Source: Planctomycetota bacterium (GTDB lineage: Bacteria; Planctomycetota; Phycisphaerae; Phycisphaerales; Zrk34). From it: a DNA stretch of 36,697 nt. The notes beneath the pieces are model-generated. The model was not told where the DNA came from, made no database searches, and saw nothing but the letters and a program-made list of their open reading frames with translations. Below are positions 23,301 through 36,025 of this stretch, piece by piece; within the stretch, counting starts at the first letter, position 1; every line of letters starts with the position of its first letter. A program made the translations under genes and the position numbers. The stretch lies in NCBI GenBank assembly GCA_043788485.1, contig JAYVTU010000017.1:1-36697 (forward strand), read 5' to 3'.

Positions 23301-24273
23301 ACCGGACGGCGTGAGCGGTATTGTTCTGGGTGGTGTGTTGTATGGGCGAGACGGCAAGGGCATTGCTGGTGGGGATTTTGAGTTCTCGATCCCCGCAGGT
23401 GGAGGTGTGGTGATCACGAAGTTTTATTGCCCGATCGAGCCCGTCGAGATATCGCCGGAGGCGACGGTGTTCACGGAGTCGCAGCGTGTCGAGCTGAAGT
23501 GTGCGACGGACGGCGTGGAGATTCGTTATACGCTTGACGGCAGCGACCCGACGCCGCGGTCGATGCTTTACAAGGAGCCCTTCACGCTGACGGCGACGAC
23601 GCGCGTCAAGGCGCGTGCGTTTCGCACCGGCGTGACGGAGATGCCGTGGGCGGCGGACGGGACGCACGCGACGGCGATGAGCTGGGCGACGTTTGAGAAG
23701 CAAGCGATTCTGCCGGCGGTGGCGGTGACCGAAGCGAAGCCTGGGCTGCATTGGCTTTATGTGGAGGGACGTTGGGCGGAGCTTTTCAGGGATGCATGGC
23801 GGATGCCGGCGCTCAAAAGCGGCGAGTCGAAGGAATTGATTGACGTCTCGATGCGCGATACAGACGGTGCGTTTGCGGTGACATCCGTGGGGATGCTGAA
23901 TGTGCCTGCGGATGGCGTTTACACTTTCTACGCGCCGCACGAGTGGCAGTATCCCGATGGCGAGAGCGGGTATGACCTGTGTTTGAACGTGCAGGGCCAC
24001 GAGTGGCAACCGGCGACGCGGCGGCATGGGCAGGGCATGTGGTCGATCGCGCTGGCCAAGGGCGCGCATCCGTTCAGTGTGACCTTCACCGACTTCCGCC
24101 CGAAGAAGTTGAAGGGCGAGTTGTGGGATGATTTTCCGAACCCGGAGATTATGTGGAAGGGCGTGACGCCGACGCTGGAGGTGAGCGGGCCGGGCTTGGA
24201 GAAGGGGCCGGTGCCGGCGGAGTGGTTGAGTCACGCGGCGTCGAAGCTCGGGATCATCGGGATCGGGAAATGA
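20374..24273 (+). CDS. Large secreted multidomain protein: N-terminal coiled coil, heparinase II/III or alginate-lyase-like (alpha/alpha toroid plus beta-sandwich) core, chitobiase/hexosaminidase-C-like and PA14-like C-terminal domains
   Basis: About 1299 aa from ATG 20374 (MKHLVMLTLLLFIASSFAGA signal peptide). The 19915 extension in the track is non-coding read-through. Family assignment is by motif resemblance only (GVEIRYTLDGSDPT; GVYTFYAPHEW). Confidence 0.65.
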   Translation: MKHLVMLTLLLFIASSFAGAADFKAMLTAESAATEAAVAGPAERLKHELEPRETAIWKQLTGRFGRDPAVSVLERAVKDASADIKKLDPAKMQTREQFDAYDGLIEKRAAATRMLEHAVALQRAAARKNAAMADDGKKLLAELADVETKIDTARKEIEIDNARALAAKTRLKNYTTAAEKPPEKAALLTLRPPGDAAERAKRFAARNSAESLAALSREFFSRIDLATPGMEKAAALFKAGKHAEALDAWRDFFFARLREPQKYGLPANWGGDLDTASLLREPDKQLLDDAMQGLFATPRIKAQVGTPGSINWADVGADPNIDPLKNPYLDFYTTRGQGGFVHVLGPHLVLLDGYAATGEKRYLDRWAEVLDDWAMNAPDDMEHCPLNIRQYPVLCSFTPVALASTLTDALAAQPEFATAMPSPTLARIMLTTMEEYPASFVRLARRGIYNWRCIAMTGAVLTAQAYPEFDAARWQLGEAKRLMELNWTHKILRDGSNLEQGNWGHEPNDQVHLGRAFRLLQAHPPAWLDEAWISEWQDNVKVNARYYLHTLKPDGYTYKFSRVTTADKFVMRGRFDDPAMPIQTNLLLGEDEARRRLEWVYGDDAVEAPRINSEFLPYYGAAILRSGWEPDASFLYFQSSPNKDCNGREDANGFSLFAHGHEMLLAPPLAVDDRTQNIHYGLVPHPGGKTIWLSYDDRGKPVESRFHTSAKFDFTEGKYEGVYQCHGPKAEADEFGEYGYAKIGDKLRAKDNKPIRDVLHARHILSLRGEDVVIVTDRFRSADTRKFSQNYTLFNPVPREGWKRRVELANEEHRPPLVIDTTAKMLRTDNESLPGISVRHFGTIEPTYTVTDNAFGKTDAAESSDEALAALGSSKLKKWTMGLPLPFSQKVRVDWNARGPQVLVTAITTRPGAIGGKAFEGDLRDVEAINAEGVTGFRAVTRQGTKIEYFVANVPRCHLGSGPFDVFGEALLVATRPDGVSGIVLGGVLYGRDGKGIAGGDFEFSIPAGGGVVITKFYCPIEPVEISPEATVFTESQRVELKCATDGVEIRYTLDGSDPTPRSMLYKEPFTLTATTRVKARAFRTGVTEMPWAADGTHATAMSWATFEKQAILPAVAVTEAKPGLHWLYVEGRWAELFRDAWRMPALKSGESKELIDVSMRDTDGAFAVTSVGMLNVPADGVYTFYAPHEWQYPDGESGYDLCLNVQGHEWQPATRRHGQGMWSIALAKGAHPFSVTFTDFRPKKLKGELWDDFPNPEIMWKGVTPTLEVSGPGLEKGPVPAEWLSHAASKLGIIGIGK

Positions 24274-24285
24274 TTGTTGGGTGGT

Positions 24286-24378
24286 TGGGGCAAAGGCTTT
24301 GCGTGCCCCAGTTTTTGGCGCGATCCAATGTGTGTCCAAGACACTGGGGCACGGCGACCTTTGCCCCAGCCACCCGGA
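24286..24378. repeat. Near-perfect long inverted repeat (about 34-bp arms) just after the stop of the large gene
   Basis: TTGGGTGGTTGGGGCAAAGGCTTTGCGTGCCCCAGT ... ACTGGGGCACGGCGACCTTTGCCCCAGCCACCCGG; no U-tract follows. Confidence 0.7.
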
Positions 24379-24756
24379 TGTTGCCTCGAAACTATCCACC
24401 GAGTATCCCATGTTGGCAGTGTGGGTTGCAGCGATCCGTTAAACCCCCATTGCTATCGTGACCCCCCGTGTGATAATGGTTCTCGTGTAGCCGAGTCCCG
24501 TCCGCGATGGACGGGAGCGGGGGACCCAAACGGGCATTGAAACTGCCGCGAAATGTGCGGTTGAACCAATGCCCACGGGGCTTAGGACCGCGATGAGCGG
24601 TCCGGGGCGACCTTTCAAGCCCTAGCCCGTCAGCTAACCCCGTAGGCAGGGCCCGACTCAGTTGTCGGCGCCCACTGAAAGGGCACCACCCGTCCTTGAA
24701 AAAGACGAGGAGCCCGAGCCACTTTTGGGGCGACGTTCGCCCAAAGGAGCGGGGTT

Positions 24757-26988
24757 ATGTTCTGCGCTATGTTTGGTTCTGCGTTGAGTCCCGGATTGTT
24801 CGACCTGTCACTGTGGGATCTGGCGGCCAAGCTCAACTGGTTTGAGTGGCTGCTGGTGCTGACGGCGGTGGCGCTGTTCGTCGCTTGGTTGACGACGCGC
24901 TACATCCCCAACAACTCCGTCGGCGTCGTCGAGAAGCTATGGTCGGCCTCGGGCTCGGTCCCCGCGGGCGGCATCATCGCGCTGCGCGGCGAAGCGGGAT
25001 TCCAGGCGGACCTGCTGCGCGGCGGCGTCCACCCGGGCCTGTGGCGGTGGCAGTACCGCATCCACAAGGTGAGGCTCGTCACCATCCCGCAGGGCAAGAT
25101 CGGCTACGTCTATGCACGCGACGGCGAACCGCTTCCGCCCAGCCAGACGCTCGGGCGCGTTGTCGAGTGCAACAACTATCAGGACGCCGATGCGTTCCTG
25201 GTGCCGAGTGCGAGCAAACGGGGTGACGCCACAGCACCGACGCGCGGCCAGCGTGGCCGGCAGCGGGCGATCCTGCGCGAGGGTGTCTACGCCATCAACC
25301 CGGCGCTCTTCGTGGTCATCAGCGAGTCGGCGGTTTATTCGCTGCCTCACCTGCAGGACCGCCAGGAGCTCGAGACCGCGCGGCGCTGGCAGCAGGAGCT
25401 CGCGCAGACCGGCGGGTTCAGCCCGCTTGTCATCGGCGGCGCACGCCTCGAAGACCTCGCGGAGAAAACCACCGCCACATCCACCGATACGATCGGCATC
25501 GTGACCGTACAGGACGGCCCGCCCCTGGGCCCCGGCGAGATCATCGCGCCGGCGGTCGGTGTCGATCCGGGATTGCCGGGGTTCCACAACAACTACCAGG
25601 ACCCCGAAGCGTTTCTCGCGGCCGGCGGTCGTCGCGGCCGGCAGTACGTCCCGCTGACCGATGGCACGTACTTCCTCAATCACTGGTTCGTCAGCGTCGA
25701 GGTCGTCGCGAAGACGGTCGTGCCGATCGGATACGTCGGCGTGGTCGTCAGCTACGTCGGCAAGGCGGGGCGCGACGTGTCGGGTGACGCGTTCCGCCAC
25801 GGCGAGCGCGTGGAGCAGGGCGAGCGCGGCGTGTGGGAGAAGCCGCTCGGTCCCGGCAAATATCCCTTCAACACCTACGCCGGAAACATCATTCATGTGC
25901 CGACGACGAACTTCGTCCTGCACTGGATTACCGGCAAAACGGAGAGCCACAAGTATGACGAGAGCCTCAAGTCGATCGACCTGGTGACGAAGGACGCGTA
26001 CGAGCCGATGCTGCCGCTCTCGGTGGTCGTGCACATCGACTACCAGCGGGCGCCGAGTGTGATCCAGCGGTTCGGTGATGTGAAAAAGCTGATCACGCAG
26101 ACGCTGGACCCGATGCTCAGCGCGTACTTCCGCGACATCGCGCATCGCAAGACGATGCTGGAGCTGCTGCACGACCGCGATGTGATTCAGACCGAGGCCC
26201 GCGAGGAGCTCCGCCGCAAGTTCCGCGAGTTTGACATCGAATGCGTGGACGTCTTGATCGGCAAGCCCGACACGGACGAGACGCACGGTGTCAAGAGCGG
26301 CGCGGGCAAGATCGAGACGCTGCTGGAGCAGCTGCGTCTTCGTCAGCTGAGCTTCGAGCAGCTCGAGACGTACGAGCGGCAGCGGGCAGCAGCCGACAAG
26401 CTGCGTGCGCTCAACGAAGCGCAGGCGCAGGCGAACATGCAGACGCAGCTGACGAACGCGCGTGTGCAGGCGCAGATCGCCGAGTCGATGGGCGAGGCGG
26501 ACCTGCAGCGAGCGAGGAAACAGGCGGAGCAGACGGTCGTCGTCGCCGAAGCCGAACTGGCTCGCTCGCGGCGCCAGGCGGAGCAGACGGTCGTGCTCGC
26601 CGAGGCGGACAGCCGGAGCCGGAATCTCGCCGGCAAAGGCGAGGGCGAGCGGATCATGCAGGTCGGCACATCGGAAGCGGCGGTGCTGGTCCGCAAGATC
26701 CAGGCGCTGGGCGACCCGCGGTTGTACGCGGTTTCGCAGGTGGCTGAGAGTTTGAGCCACTCCGTGCAGCCGCTGGTGCCGCAGCGTTTGTTTGTCAGCG
26801 GCGGCGGAGCGGGCAGCGAGGACGGCCAGGGCCGGACGAGCCTCGGCATGCTGGGCGTGCTGATCGATCTGCTCGTGGCGGAAAAGACGGGCATGAAGCC
26901 CGGCGGCGGCGAAAGCGGTGGGGCGGCAGACGCTTCACTGATCACTGCAACGGCCGCAACGCCTGCGCAGTCGCCGGCCAAAGCGTGA
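24757..26988 (+). CDS. Flotillin-like SPFH/Band-7 family protein
   Basis: N-terminal TM, SPFH core (VVVHIDYQRAPSVIQRFGD), flotillin-type EA/AEQ-rich coiled coil, and a Gly-rich tail. Good RBS (AAAGGAG) 7 nt upstream of the ATG. Confidence 0.85.
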   Translation: MFCAMFGSALSPGLFDLSLWDLAAKLNWFEWLLVLTAVALFVAWLTTRYIPNNSVGVVEKLWSASGSVPAGGIIALRGEAGFQADLLRGGVHPGLWRWQYRIHKVRLVTIPQGKIGYVYARDGEPLPPSQTLGRVVECNNYQDADAFLVPSASKRGDATAPTRGQRGRQRAILREGVYAINPALFVVISESAVYSLPHLQDRQELETARRWQQELAQTGGFSPLVIGGARLEDLAEKTTATSTDTIGIVTVQDGPPLGPGEIIAPAVGVDPGLPGFHNNYQDPEAFLAAGGRRGRQYVPLTDGTYFLNHWFVSVEVVAKTVVPIGYVGVVVSYVGKAGRDVSGDAFRHGERVEQGERGVWEKPLGPGKYPFNTYAGNIIHVPTTNFVLHWITGKTESHKYDESLKSIDLVTKDAYEPMLPLSVVVHIDYQRAPSVIQRFGDVKKLITQTLDPMLSAYFRDIAHRKTMLELLHDRDVIQTEAREELRRKFREFDIECVDVLIGKPDTDETHGVKSGAGKIETLLEQLRLRQLSFEQLETYERQRAAADKLRALNEAQAQANMQTQLTNARVQAQIAESMGEADLQRARKQAEQTVVVAEAELARSRRQAEQTVVLAEADSRSRNLAGKGEGERIMQVGTSEAAVLVRKIQALGDPRLYAVSQVAESLSHSVQPLVPQRLFVSGGGAGSEDGQGRTSLGMLGVLIDLLVAEKTGMKPGGGESGGAADASLITATAATPAQSPAKA

Positions 26989-27106
26989 CGTCTCACTCGT
27001 TTTGAAGTTCATCGTCCCCGGCGGGCCATCACCCGCCGGGGATTTTTTTTCGTCACGCACACGGATCGATTTCCGCCGGGGGAACCGTAGGTTCCTCTGG
27101 CGGGAG

Positions 27107-27517
27107 TCAATCGCGGTCGGTGAGCGCCGTGGACGATGCGGTGGACACGTTTGCGGGGTCGGTGGAGTTGCTCGGCTCGGTGTGTGTCACCTTCAAGCCG
27201 ATGATGCCGACGATGACCATGGCGAGGCAGATGAGGCGTGGCAGGTCGCGGGATTCGTTGAAGAGCCAGATGCCGATGACGGCAGCGCCGGCGGCTCCCA
27301 GGCCGGTCCAGACGGCGTAGGCGGTGCCGATGGGCAGGCCGAATTTCGGGCTGACGGCGAGGGTGAGCAGGGCGAAGCTGATGCACATGATGATCATCAT
27401 GGCGACGAGCCACCACGGCTTGCTGAGGCCCTGGCTCTGCTTCATGCACAGAGGCCAGCCGACTTCCAGAAGCCCGGCGACCACCACCAGAAGCCAGCCC
27501 GTCGTGTTGCTGTTCAT
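27107..27517 (-). CDS. sugE: SMR-family small multidrug/guanidinium exporter (SugE/Gdx-like)
   Basis: Four-TM SMR signature (GWLLVVVAGLLEVGW ... AYAVWTGLGAAG) with a roughly 30-aa hydrophilic C-terminal extension. Confidence 0.85.
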   Translation of the reverse strand: MNSNTTGWLLVVVAGLLEVGWPLCMKQSQGLSKPWWLVAMMIIMCISFALLTLAVSPKFGLPIGTAYAVWTGLGAAGAAVIGIWLFNESRDLPRLICLAMVIVGIIGLKVTHTEPSNSTDPANVSTASSTALTDRD

Positions 27518-27558
27518 CGCGGAACCCTTTTGATCGAAGTTGGCGGGAGTATAAGGAA

Positions 27559-27658
27559 GTTAATGGGTTAATGGGTTAATGGGTTGATGGGTTGATCTGG
27601 GGTTGCGCACGTGCCGTTCTTCCACGTTAACCCATTAACCCGTTAACTCATTAACCGG
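27559..27658. repeat. Palindrome built of tandem GTTAATGG / CCATTAAC octamers in the divergent promoter/5'UTR region between sugE and the 27731 gene
   Basis: GTTAATGG x3 and GTTGATGG x2, about 30 nt of spacer, then GTTAACCCATTAACCCGTTAACTCATTAACCGG. Confidence 0.7.
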
Positions 27659-28609: not shown

Positions 28610-28797
28610 GAGGTCAGAGGTCAGTGATCAGAGGTCAGCGGGATTGACCATCGCTGTCGCATGGACATGTTTTTCGTGCTCGTGCTCGTGCTCGTAAATC
28701 GTAATCGAATCTCCGGGAGGGGATCGATTACGAGAAACGATTATGAGCACGAGCACGATGGAAATTTGCTTTGGCTGCGCCTGACTTCTGACCTCTG
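28610..28797. repeat. Nested palindromic element: outer GAGGTCA repeats / CTGACCTC, inner CGTGCT-repeat / CGATTAC hairpin (copy 1)
   Basis: GAGGTCAGAGGTCAGTGATCAGAGGTCAG ... CGTGCTCGTGCTCGTGCTCGTAAATCGTAATCGAATC ... GATCGATTACGAGAAACGATTATGAGCACGAGCACGA ... CTGACTTCTGACCTCTGG. Confidence 0.75.
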
Positions 28798-29096: not shown

Positions 29097-29166
29097 CTTT
29101 TCGTGCTCGTGCTCGTAATCGTAATCGAAAAATGGGACTCGATTACGATTACGAGCACGAGCACCG
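29097..29166. repeat. Second copy of the CGTGCT/CGATTAC palindromic element, immediately 5' of the mazG-like start codon
   Basis: TTCGTGCTCGTGCTCGTAATCGTAATCGAAAAATGGGACTCGATTACGATTACGAGCACGAGCAC. The arms are near-identical to copy 1. Confidence 0.75.
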
Positions 29167-33640: not shown

Positions 33641-33667
33641 CCCCGAGCATCCCTCGGGGTTTTTTTG
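33641..33667 (+). terminator. Rho-independent terminator
   Basis: CCCCGAG-catcc-CTCGGGG followed by TTTTTTT. Confidence 0.75.
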
Positions 33668-33672
33668 TGTCA

Positions 33673-33843
33673 AAAAACTTTGGGGCAATGACGAATGACG
33701 AAATTCGAATGACGAATCAAATTCCAATGATCAAATTCCAATGGGGAAAGGCAACCGAAGGCTCCGTTTCGTCATTGGAATTTGGAATTTGATCATTGAT
33801 TCGTCATTCGAATTTCGTCATTCGTCATTACCCCAAAGCTTTG
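33673..33843. repeat. Very long AT-rich palindrome (about 70-bp arms) built from GAATGAC and AATTCCAATG tandem units, upstream of mreB
   Basis: CTTTGGGGCAATGACGAATGACGAAATTCGAATGACGAATCAAATTCCAATGATCAAATTCCAATGGGG ... CATTGGAATTTGGAATTTGATCATTGATTCGTCATTCGAATTTCGTCATTCGTCATTACCCCAAAG. Confidence 0.8.
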
Positions 33844-33997
33844 CGTCACGGCCGCATCACGTTATCATCTGCCGTGGTTTGCGTGACGCGATCACGGGGT
33901 GATCCGCAGCCGACAGACCCATTGAAATTTCCGCCGTGCGCCGGCTCCCCGCCATGGCGCCGTCGAAAGGTGGCCGCCGTTGAATCTGCTGGACAAC

Positions 33998-35035: not shown

Positions 35036-35040
35036 AACAA

Positions 35041-35115
35041 GGGTTCAGGGTTCGGGGTTCAGGGTTCAGGACTCGGCACTCCGAACCTGAATCCTGAACC
35101 CCGAACCCTGAACCC
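35041..35115. repeat. Hairpin of tandem GGGTTCA / TGAACCC heptamers between mreB and mreC
   Basis: GGGTTCAGGGTTCGGGGTTCAGGGTTCAGGACTCGGCACTCCGAACCTGAATCCTGAACCCCGAACCCTGAACCC. Confidence 0.8.
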
Positions 35116-35116
35116 T

Positions 35117-36025
35117 TTGATGTCTTCCTCCGCCATCAAATCACGTCGCTGGATCATGCCCGCCGTTGTCGCGGGGGCGCTGGTGCTTTCGATGCTGCCG
35201 GCGCGGTGGTGCGGTTATGCGCAGCCGCTGGCGGGGTTGGTGTCGCTGACGACGCGACCGCTCACCGGGCCGTTGCGCGTCCTCTCGGCACGCGTGATCC
35301 CGCAGCCTCCGGCTCCGGCGCTCGGAGCGGCACGCGACCTGAGCGAAAAACTGCGCGAGCAGGACACGATGCTTCTGGCGCTGCAGCGCCGCGTGCATGA
35401 ACTGGAACTAATCAACGCGGAACTGCAGGGCCTCAAGCGCCGGCTCGGTGAGTCGTACGTGTATCGCCGCGCCAATGTCATCGCGCGCGGCGCCGATGCC
35501 GCGGCGGGGTCGCTGCAATTGGATCTCGGAACACGTGAAGGAATCCGCCCCGGGCTCGCCGCCGTCGAGGGAGCGAGCCTGATCGGCCGTGTCATCCAGG
35601 TCGGCCCCGCGGGGAGCACGCTGCTGCCGGTCACCGCCCCGACCGCCGGATACATCGGCGTGATCTTCGCCCCGGCGATCCTTCCGCCGGAGGGATTGAC
35701 GGCGCAGCGGAACCGGGCGTGGCTGCTCAAGGCGGGACCGAATGAGCGGCTCATCTGCGAGGACGTCGATCGGCAGGCGTTGATCCAGGTCGGCGATTAC
35801 GCGCGGCTGCGCGATGAAGAGGGCAACGGAAGCTGGCCCGCCGCGGCACAGGGGATGATCGTCGGCGTGGTGACGGCGGTGACCGACAACGAGAAATCGC
35901 CGCTGCGCCAGCGCATCGAGGTGCGCCCGCTGATCTCGCCGCGGGCCATTGATGCCGTGACGATCATCGTCCCGCGGGACAACCCCTCGGATCACGCCGG
36001 TGGCGGCGGGGGAGGCGCGCCGTGA
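35117..36025 (+). CDS. mreC: Rod shape-determining protein MreC
   Basis: The position after mreB, an N-terminal TM, a short coiled coil (LALQRRVHELELINAELQGLKRRL) and a beta-rich periplasmic domain all fit MreC. Confidence 0.75.
   Translation: MMSSSAIKSRRWIMPAVVAGALVLSMLPARWCGYAQPLAGLVSLTTRPLTGPLRVLSARVIPQPPAPALGAARDLSEKLREQDTMLLALQRRVHELELINAELQGLKRRLGESYVYRRANVIARGADAAAGSLQLDLGTREGIRPGLAAVEGASLIGRVIQVGPAGSTLLPVTAPTAGYIGVIFAPAILPPEGLTAQRNRAWLLKAGPNERLICEDVDRQALIQVGDYARLRDEEGNGSWPAAAQGMIVGVVTAVTDNEKSPLRQRIEVRPLISPRAIDAVTIIVPRDNPSDHAGGGGGGAP

Follow-up and report, generated by a model that had tools for sequence, protein, structure and literature searches.

The question raised by contig JAYVTU010000017.1 of a planctomycete genome assembly (GCA_043788485.1), a stretch of 36,697 nucleotides (nt) that was analyzed as a whole and is referred to here as the window, is what occupies the unexplained gap of about 480 nt between two of its genes. 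The gap runs from the stop codon at 24273 of a gene for a 1,452-residue heparinase-II/III-like protein to the ATG at 24757 of a gene for a 743-residue membrane protein (24757-26988, + strand), which has an SPFH/Band-7 domain and a long C-terminal helical repeat region. An earlier examination of the letters alone, the sequence-only reading, had proposed that this gap lacks any plausible open reading frame (ORF), carries many GC-rich stem-loops, and is a candidate structured RNA. The ORF list agrees on the first point, as the gap holds only short, overlapping, mechanical ORFs. We conclude, at a probability of about 0.88, that the gap consists of a promoter and the 5′ leader of a single-gene SPFH/Band-7 messenger RNA (mRNA), and that the leader starts with an aptamer of the cyclic di-adenosine monophosphate (c-di-AMP) class.

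The identity of the RNA comes from Rfam. The whole window was scanned with Rfam 15 at gathering thresholds, and a 651-nt region around the gap was rescanned at E <= 1. The sole match in the window at gathering thresholds was to RF00379, the c-di-AMP riboswitch (ydaO/yuaA), at 24479-24663 on the + strand, with 55.3 bits against a gathering score of 38 (E = 2.4e-10) and with the model covered over its full length (positions 1-134 of 134). The RNase P, transfer-messenger RNA, signal recognition particle RNA, and cobalamin families had no match in the window, nor at E <= 1 in the 651-nt region, in agreement with their exclusion by eye in the sequence-only reading. The leader (24479-24775) was predicted to fold at -143.4 kcal/mol, compared with a mean of -117.6 kcal/mol for 200 dinucleotide shuffles used as the control (z = -4.75), and none of the 200 shuffles did as well. 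The class to which the RNA belongs has long been known, with its structure solved, and any Rfam pipeline would label it. Aptamers of this class from Thermoanaerobacter have been crystallized (PDB 4QLM/4QLN), and its members bind c-di-AMP selectively, with two molecules per RNA.

The predicted architecture is nested, and we numbered its helices P1 to P7 from 5′ to 3′, a numbering of our own. As placed by the covariance model and RNAalifold on the + strand, P1 (24490-24492/24645-24647) encloses P2 (24496-24516) and P3 (24517-24522/24638-24643); P3 encloses P4 and P5 (24578-24581/24625-24628); and P5 encloses P6 (24585-24603) and P7 (24604-24623). P4, placed from the cmscan alignment and the minimum-free-energy (MFE) fold, is an extended hairpin at 24532-24574 (+; GGGCATTG...CAATGCCC, with an inner CTGCCGC/GTGCGG stem), which makes up most of an insertion of ~41 nt relative to the Rfam model and differs in length among orthologues. 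All of the stem-loops quoted in the sequence-only reading exist where it had placed them, on the + strand: CCCGTCC-GCGAT-GGACGGG (24497-24515) is part of aptamer helix P2, GGACCGC-GATGA-GCGGTCC (24585-24603) is helix P6, ACCCCGTAGG provides the 3′ strand of P3 and P1, and GGGCGA-CGT-TCGCCC (24728-24742) is the core of a hairpin that covers the Shine-Dalgarno sequence. Residue by residue, the alignment retains the blocks that are conserved in the class (GCCGA, CGGGGGA.CC, GGGG, and CCCGUCAGCUAACC.CG.AGGC), and many positions of the conserved core are invariant among the 15 sequences of our first alignment.

The aptamer extends past the Rfam match at its 3′ end. Between the 3′ strand of P1 and the pseudoknot strand lies a lineage-specific hairpin, H8 (24649-24673, +), which varies in sequence among the leaders while its pairing is always kept, with compensatory double changes in seven of seven pairs (52 sequences). 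The 3′ strand of the pseudoknot, CTGAAAGG (24675-24682, +), can pair with the P7 loop CCTTTCA (24611-24617), as UGAAAGG (24676-24682) with CCUUUCA. The leaders share a near-invariant UUGAAAG tail complementary to a near-invariant P7 loop, CUUUCAA, and in 52 leaders 93.9% of the pseudoknot cells are paired. Such strict conservation of both strands leaves only modest covariation support for this pairing, with few co-changes (loop CUUUCGC with tail GUGAAAG in loci L011 and L032; loop CCUUUCC with tail GGAAA.GG in L074). The same complementarity between loop and tail is found in the crystallized ydaO RNA, where the P7 loop CUCCUUC matches a 3′ tail, GAAGGAG (PMC5393176), which argues that the tail seen here is the pseudoknot of the class, displaced by the inserted H8. 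The true 3′ end of the aptamer is therefore at ~24682. A practical consequence is that the real pseudoknot strand is missed by Rfam boundaries in this lineage, which fall ~19 nt short in the window.

Comparison with related leaders provides the second line of evidence. A genome scan yielded 80 loci with homologues of the SPFH gene, nearly all of them from planctomycete metagenome-assembled genomes (MAGs). Of the first 20 loci, 14 had the same riboswitch by Rfam alone, in each case upstream of the gene and in its orientation. A covariance model of our own, built from the Rfam-positive orthologous leaders and run over all 80 loci, found the aptamer in this position in 52 of them, in addition to the window; 34 of 36 model-positive loci that were run through Rfam exceeded its gathering score, and RF00379 scores ranged from 41 to 66 bits across 35 leaders. 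The 52 aptamer-positive loci and the window together form a 53-sequence alignment, which is fitted to the covariance model and hence biased towards structure, and from the scoring of which P4 was left out as unalignable. In this alignment, 97.5% of cells form standard pairs and 19 of 32 pairs show double changes, amounting to 214 compensatory cells. None of 500 column shuffles reached any of the five covariation measures, and when the 3′ partners were slid by 1-3 columns as a further control, pairing fell to 34-49%. RNAalifold, applied unguided to a plain MAFFT alignment, recovered P1, P2, P3, P5, P6, and P7, with compensatory changes in 16 of its 33 predicted pairs. As this unguided prediction agrees, we regard the covariation signal as real despite the model-fitted alignment. 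The structured RNA suspected in the sequence-only reading is thus borne out, though it had been left under-specified: both the Rfam scan and the covariation check on related leaders that had been suggested there are positive, with a full-length RF00379 match above the gathering score and abundant compensatory changes across 53 orthologous leaders.

The remaining 28 of the 80 loci are without the aptamer, even at E <= 10 with our own model, and three of these are truncated upstream; Rfam also returned no riboswitch in the 20 aptamer-less loci that were run through it. By protein clustering, 20 aptamer-less loci belong to one clade, which includes two Singulisphaera isolates and Tepidisphaeraceae-labelled MAGs (L024, L027, L031, L034, L038, L041, L043, L044, L046, L051, L053, L056, L061, L063, L066, L067, L069, L070, L071, and L077), while in the remaining protein clades the aptamer is almost always present. 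This distribution makes the association between riboswitch and gene an old and lineage-structured one rather than a sporadic one, and riboswitch control of the SPFH gene clade-specific. Separately, we note two Rfam matches above the gathering score to the Acido-Lenti-1 small RNA, both near SPFH homologues that have no riboswitch (L021:5166-5211, - strand, 46.4 bits; L024:340-391, + strand, 41.5 bits).

A sigma-70-type promoter (24450-24477, +) ends two bases ahead of the Rfam match. It has a -35 element, TTGCTA (24450-24455), a 16-nt spacer, and GATAAT within an extended -10 element, TGTGATAAT (24469-24477), and the scan returned this one site against 0.2 expected. When the 62 nt upstream were aligned, a TAnAAT box was seen 8-12 nt 5′ of P1 in nearly all of the 53 leaders, along with a TTG -35 element in many. 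The fixed distance between this box and P1 indicates that the aptamer starts within a few nucleotides of the 5′ end of the RNA, and in the window transcription is predicted to begin at ~24484, a few nucleotides before P1. A pairing of the 5′ flank GUGUA with the H8 loop was considered and is unsupported, as loci L019 and L020 differ in the flank and share the same loop; the flank is more likely kept as initially transcribed sequence.

At the other end of the leader, a Shine-Dalgarno sequence, AAGGAG (24744-24749, +), precedes the ATG of the SPFH gene, and the orthologues carry GGAGG-type sites 7-10 nt ahead of their starts. Downstream of the stop codon at 26988 is a bidirectional intrinsic terminator (27013-27050), CCCCGGCGGG-CCATCA-CCCGCCGGGG followed by T8, with a 10-bp GC stem and a 6-nt loop. 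The next gene is convergent and encodes a small multidrug resistance (SMR) protein (27107-27517, - strand; PF00893, 88 bits). An ORF on the + strand at 27002-27571 was weighed as a co-transcribed gene and rejected, being of low complexity and having no homologue in the 80 loci, with the real gene at this place being that for the SMR protein on the minus strand. The unit is monocistronic, so what had been an unexplained gap can be annotated as part of a regulatory unit made up of a promoter, a riboswitch, one gene, and a terminator. Since the element acts in cis, as a leader, it should not give rise to a transcript of its own apart from the mRNA leader. The sequence-only reading had also counted a hairpin at 24286-24378 as part of the gap RNA, which was mistaken, as the conserved promoter at 24450-24477 separates the two.

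We then considered how the aptamer could control the gene. A conserved hairpin, H9 (24681-24715, +), abuts the pseudoknot strand and shares one or two G residues with it. An automatic energy-based definition of H9 gave inconsistent boundaries, and it was located instead by a strict single-hairpin search, which found a single hairpin in nearly all leaders. Its base, GGGC/GCCC, is conserved, and its apical stems differ by lineage (CGUC/GACG, GCUCC/GGAGC, GUCC/GGAC, GCCCCG/CGGGGC, and GGCUCCC/GGGAGCC). All 20 tested H9 segments had z < 0 (-0.7 to -4.4), a result that is supportive rather than rigorous because the boundaries were energy-chosen. MAFFT with RNAalifold gave no consensus for H9, the apical stems being of unequal length, and its covariation is qualitative only. 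H9 may be the first element of the expression platform. It is followed in the window by a second hairpin, H10 (24722-24747, +; CTTTTGGGGCGA-CGT-TCGCCCAAAGG), the 5′ arm of which is the U-rich run after H9 and the 3′ arm of which covers the first half of the Shine-Dalgarno sequence; in the folds, this sequence has an unpaired probability of 0.12-0.14. On this view, the platform would be a relay of hairpins that varies among lineages, with the conserved H9 as its anchor.

Going by its class membership, the RNA would bind c-di-AMP. By the same analogy, binding would lock P1, P3, and the pseudoknot and would lower downstream expression, so that low c-di-AMP would allow the protein to be made. We favor this OFF polarity, if with some reserve, by comparison with characterized members: ydaO/kimA of Bacillus subtilis is an OFF switch that acts by termination, nlpC of Corynebacterium glutamicum is an OFF switch that is apparently translational and has no canonical terminator, and rpfA of Streptomyces coelicolor is an OFF switch that also lacks one (PMC9960051). 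A terminator scan found no canonical terminator in the leader of the window and nothing at H9. Because of this, and because the Shine-Dalgarno sequence lies within H10 and the U/C-rich 5′ arm of H10 follows directly after H9, the level of control in the window is most likely translational. Taken as a whole, the gene is probably controlled by a lineage-specific variant of the c-di-AMP riboswitch, with an extra hairpin before the pseudoknot strand and a multi-hairpin platform.

Several findings weigh against a c-di-AMP OFF switch, and the rival explanations draw on them. The junctions of the aptamer depart from the Rfam consensus: J5/6 reads CUUAG here and UGAAU in Rfam, with one A invariant in the family, J7/5 reads UAG here and GAA in Rfam, and J6/7 departs as well. 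Changes of ligand specificity have happened in other riboswitch classes, and the junction nucleotides, together with the extra hairpin H8 and the unusual target gene, could mean that the RNA has diverged from the c-di-AMP aptamer and undergone such a change. We hold this to be very improbable, as the most conserved core of the class is intact, the scores across the 35 leaders are well over the gathering score, and the variable position of J5/6 is an A in some orthologues (CGAAG in L011 and L015), as in the crystallized sequence. An SPFH/Band-7 target also lies outside the usual categories of the class, which are K+, osmolyte, and amino-acid transport and cell-wall remodeling (PMC7266159), although target category is an association and not a requirement for membership. 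No DGA...RHR cyclase motif was found in the contig, 36.7 kb of which says little about the whole genome, and a literature search for c-di-AMP cyclases in planctomycetes yielded none. Another account, that of an ordinary promoter and leader with chance hairpins, such as high-GC sequence forms in number, or of a free-standing small RNA, has next to no credibility beside an Rfam E value of 2.4e-10, compensatory changes over 52 loci whose proteins share only 65-73% identity, and a fixed position relative to promoter and gene.

The remaining contrary findings concern the direction and level of switching. In thermodynamic models of 52 whole leaders, the Shine-Dalgarno sequence was mostly paired in both states, with an unpaired probability of 0.27 when the aptamer was enforced and 0.28 when it was free (p = 0.44), and folds restricted to the platform, from H8 to ATG+20, were alike whether the pseudoknot strand was blocked or left free. 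In the window, the start codon was unpaired at 0.98 with the aptamer enforced and at 0.44 without, which fits an ON switch, that is, the same aptamer with ligand-driven folding that frees the initiation region. If the aptamer were unfolded, the P3 3′ strand AACCCCGU (24636-24643) could pair with GCGGGGUU (24749-24756) beside the ATG, and the unconstrained MFE fold forms exactly that pairing. What enables it is a 9-nt direct repeat, GGAGCGGGG, present at 24514-24522 (the end of P2 and the 5′ strand of P3) and at 24746-24754 (the Shine-Dalgarno sequence and spacer), either copy of which can pair with the P3 3′ strand; this repeat is, however, specific to the window, and in every class member the CCUC of P3 could pair with Shine-Dalgarno sequences. 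The start codon was also slightly more open across the 52 leaders with the aptamer enforced (0.54 versus 0.50, Wilcoxon p = 0.03), a marginal and small effect that vanishes in the platform-only model (0.507 versus 0.506). As the c-di-AMP riboswitches described in the literature consulted act as OFF switches (PMC9960051), an ON switch is unlikely. It is also doubtful that the switch is transcriptional, with H9 and the U-rich run acting as an attenuator or intrinsic terminator as in the B. subtilis ydaO leader. The H9 of the window is weak (-12.2 kcal/mol) and lies 7 nt from UUUU, whereas the contig's own terminator at 27013-27050, which indicates that the organism does use canonical terminators, has a 10-bp GC stem and U8; the U-run in question forms the 5′ arm of H10, the hairpin over the Shine-Dalgarno sequence, and the terminator scan was blank at H9. 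Against this stand the position of H9, which is that of the terminator in B. subtilis, and the finding that 18 of 51 distinct leaders, compared with ~4.8 expected, carry a run of at least four T at 25-85 nt past the pseudoknot strand. About two-thirds of leaders have no such run, but L015 and L033 have a GC stem followed by CUC or ACUC and then U4-5, and H9 with its U-run may serve as an attenuator in some lineages.

Returning to the gene under the putative translational OFF switch, its SPFH/Band-7 domain spans residues 321-508 (PF01145, 53 bits against a cut-off of 23.6). The protein has thousands of homologues, the closest ~65-74% identical, and named homologues are called "YqiK" (a JGI label) or SPFH domain-containing protein, in Gemmataceae. 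A low-confidence structure model (predicted local distance difference test score of 49) has an N-terminal helix at residues 17-46 and a long helix at 516-651, and the C-terminal helix carries EA-rich repeats. The name flotillin, used in the sequence-only reading, is partly supported: the SPFH domain, the N-terminal helix, and the long C-terminal helical repeat fit it, but searches of NCBIfam and of PDB sequences returned no match for the protein, which counts against it, as does the poor quality of the structure model. Within the ORF, ~270 residues between the membrane helix and the SPFH domain (in residues 1-320, window 24757-25717) have no Pfam match and show strong conservation among homologues, many alignment columns being invariant; this segment looks like an uncharacterized domain. 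We also observed a 54-nt tandem duplication (26493-26600, 74% identity) in the SPFH gene, from which come the repeated AEQTVV..AEAEL..RSRRQ units in the C-terminal helical part of the protein.

Set beside known systems, the leader shares with the ydaO/yuaA (kimA) class of RF00379 a full model match, the nested P1-P7 arrangement, the pseudoknot between P7 loop and 3′ tail, the main conserved sequence blocks, and the position at the mRNA 5′ end. It differs in having an H8 of ~25 nt between P1 and the pseudoknot strand, a long variable P4, several changed junction bases, and no canonical terminator, as well as a planctomycete host and an SPFH/flotillin-like target in place of a K+/osmolyte transporter or cell-wall hydrolase. 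The closest functional parallels may be drawn with C. glutamicum nlpC and S. coelicolor rpfA, which likewise occur in high-GC hosts, lack a canonical leader terminator, and have a ribosome binding site that a C/U-rich leader can occlude, with translational control proposed for C. glutamicum (PMC9960051). These two genes encode cell-wall enzymes, however, and have platforms without homology to the H9 and H10 predicted here. On the protein side, B. subtilis floT/yuaG and E. coli yqiK share the SPFH/Band-7 domain, N-terminal membrane helix, and C-terminal helical repeats, but lack the ~270 residues that are inserted here between membrane helix and SPFH domain. The non-standard points of the system are the host phylum, H8, the conserved H9, the platform, and the target gene.

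A full-text literature search, with the original gene-association tables outside its reach, found no paper joining the c-di-AMP/ydaO riboswitch with flotillin or SPFH proteins; no report of riboswitch control of flotillin genes was found, and neither of the two titles that matched Planctomycetes together with the riboswitch suggested that a c-di-AMP riboswitch had been described in the phylum. If the proposed control is correct, the c-di-AMP regulon would take in membrane organization in addition to ion and osmolyte transport and wall hydrolases, and the phylum, for which we found no c-di-AMP system described, would be expected to have an active one. Should the aptamer bind c-di-AMP, the level of a flotillin-like scaffold would be tied to what is, in other bacteria, a signal of potassium, turgor, and envelope state. 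With its conserved H8 and H9 additions and no recognizable switch mechanism, the locus would also be a useful case of c-di-AMP riboswitch regulation in high-GC bacteria without leader terminators.

Finally, we delimit the hairpin near the upstream gene to 24279-24375. It is nearly perfect over its 97 nt (-79.3 kcal/mol, z = -8.8) and begins 6 nt past the stop codon of the gene for the heparinase-II/III-like protein. Since it lies upstream of the riboswitch promoter, we treat it as a separate element. It has no U-tract after it and no second copy in the window or the 80 loci. Rfam matches to microRNA precursors are far below threshold and reflect the long perfect hairpin, and this identity was rejected; the hairpin may serve the upstream gene as a terminator or insulator. 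Long intergenic inverted repeats also occur at 27559-27655, 28674-28758, 29103-29164, 33667-33849, and 35039-35117, one of them with 90-nt arms. Their arms are built of short tandem units (GGGTTAAT, GTGCTC/TCGTAA, AATGACGA, and GGGTTCA), and this unusual palindrome-of-repeats architecture, which the 97-nt hairpin resembles in kind, recurs over the contig.

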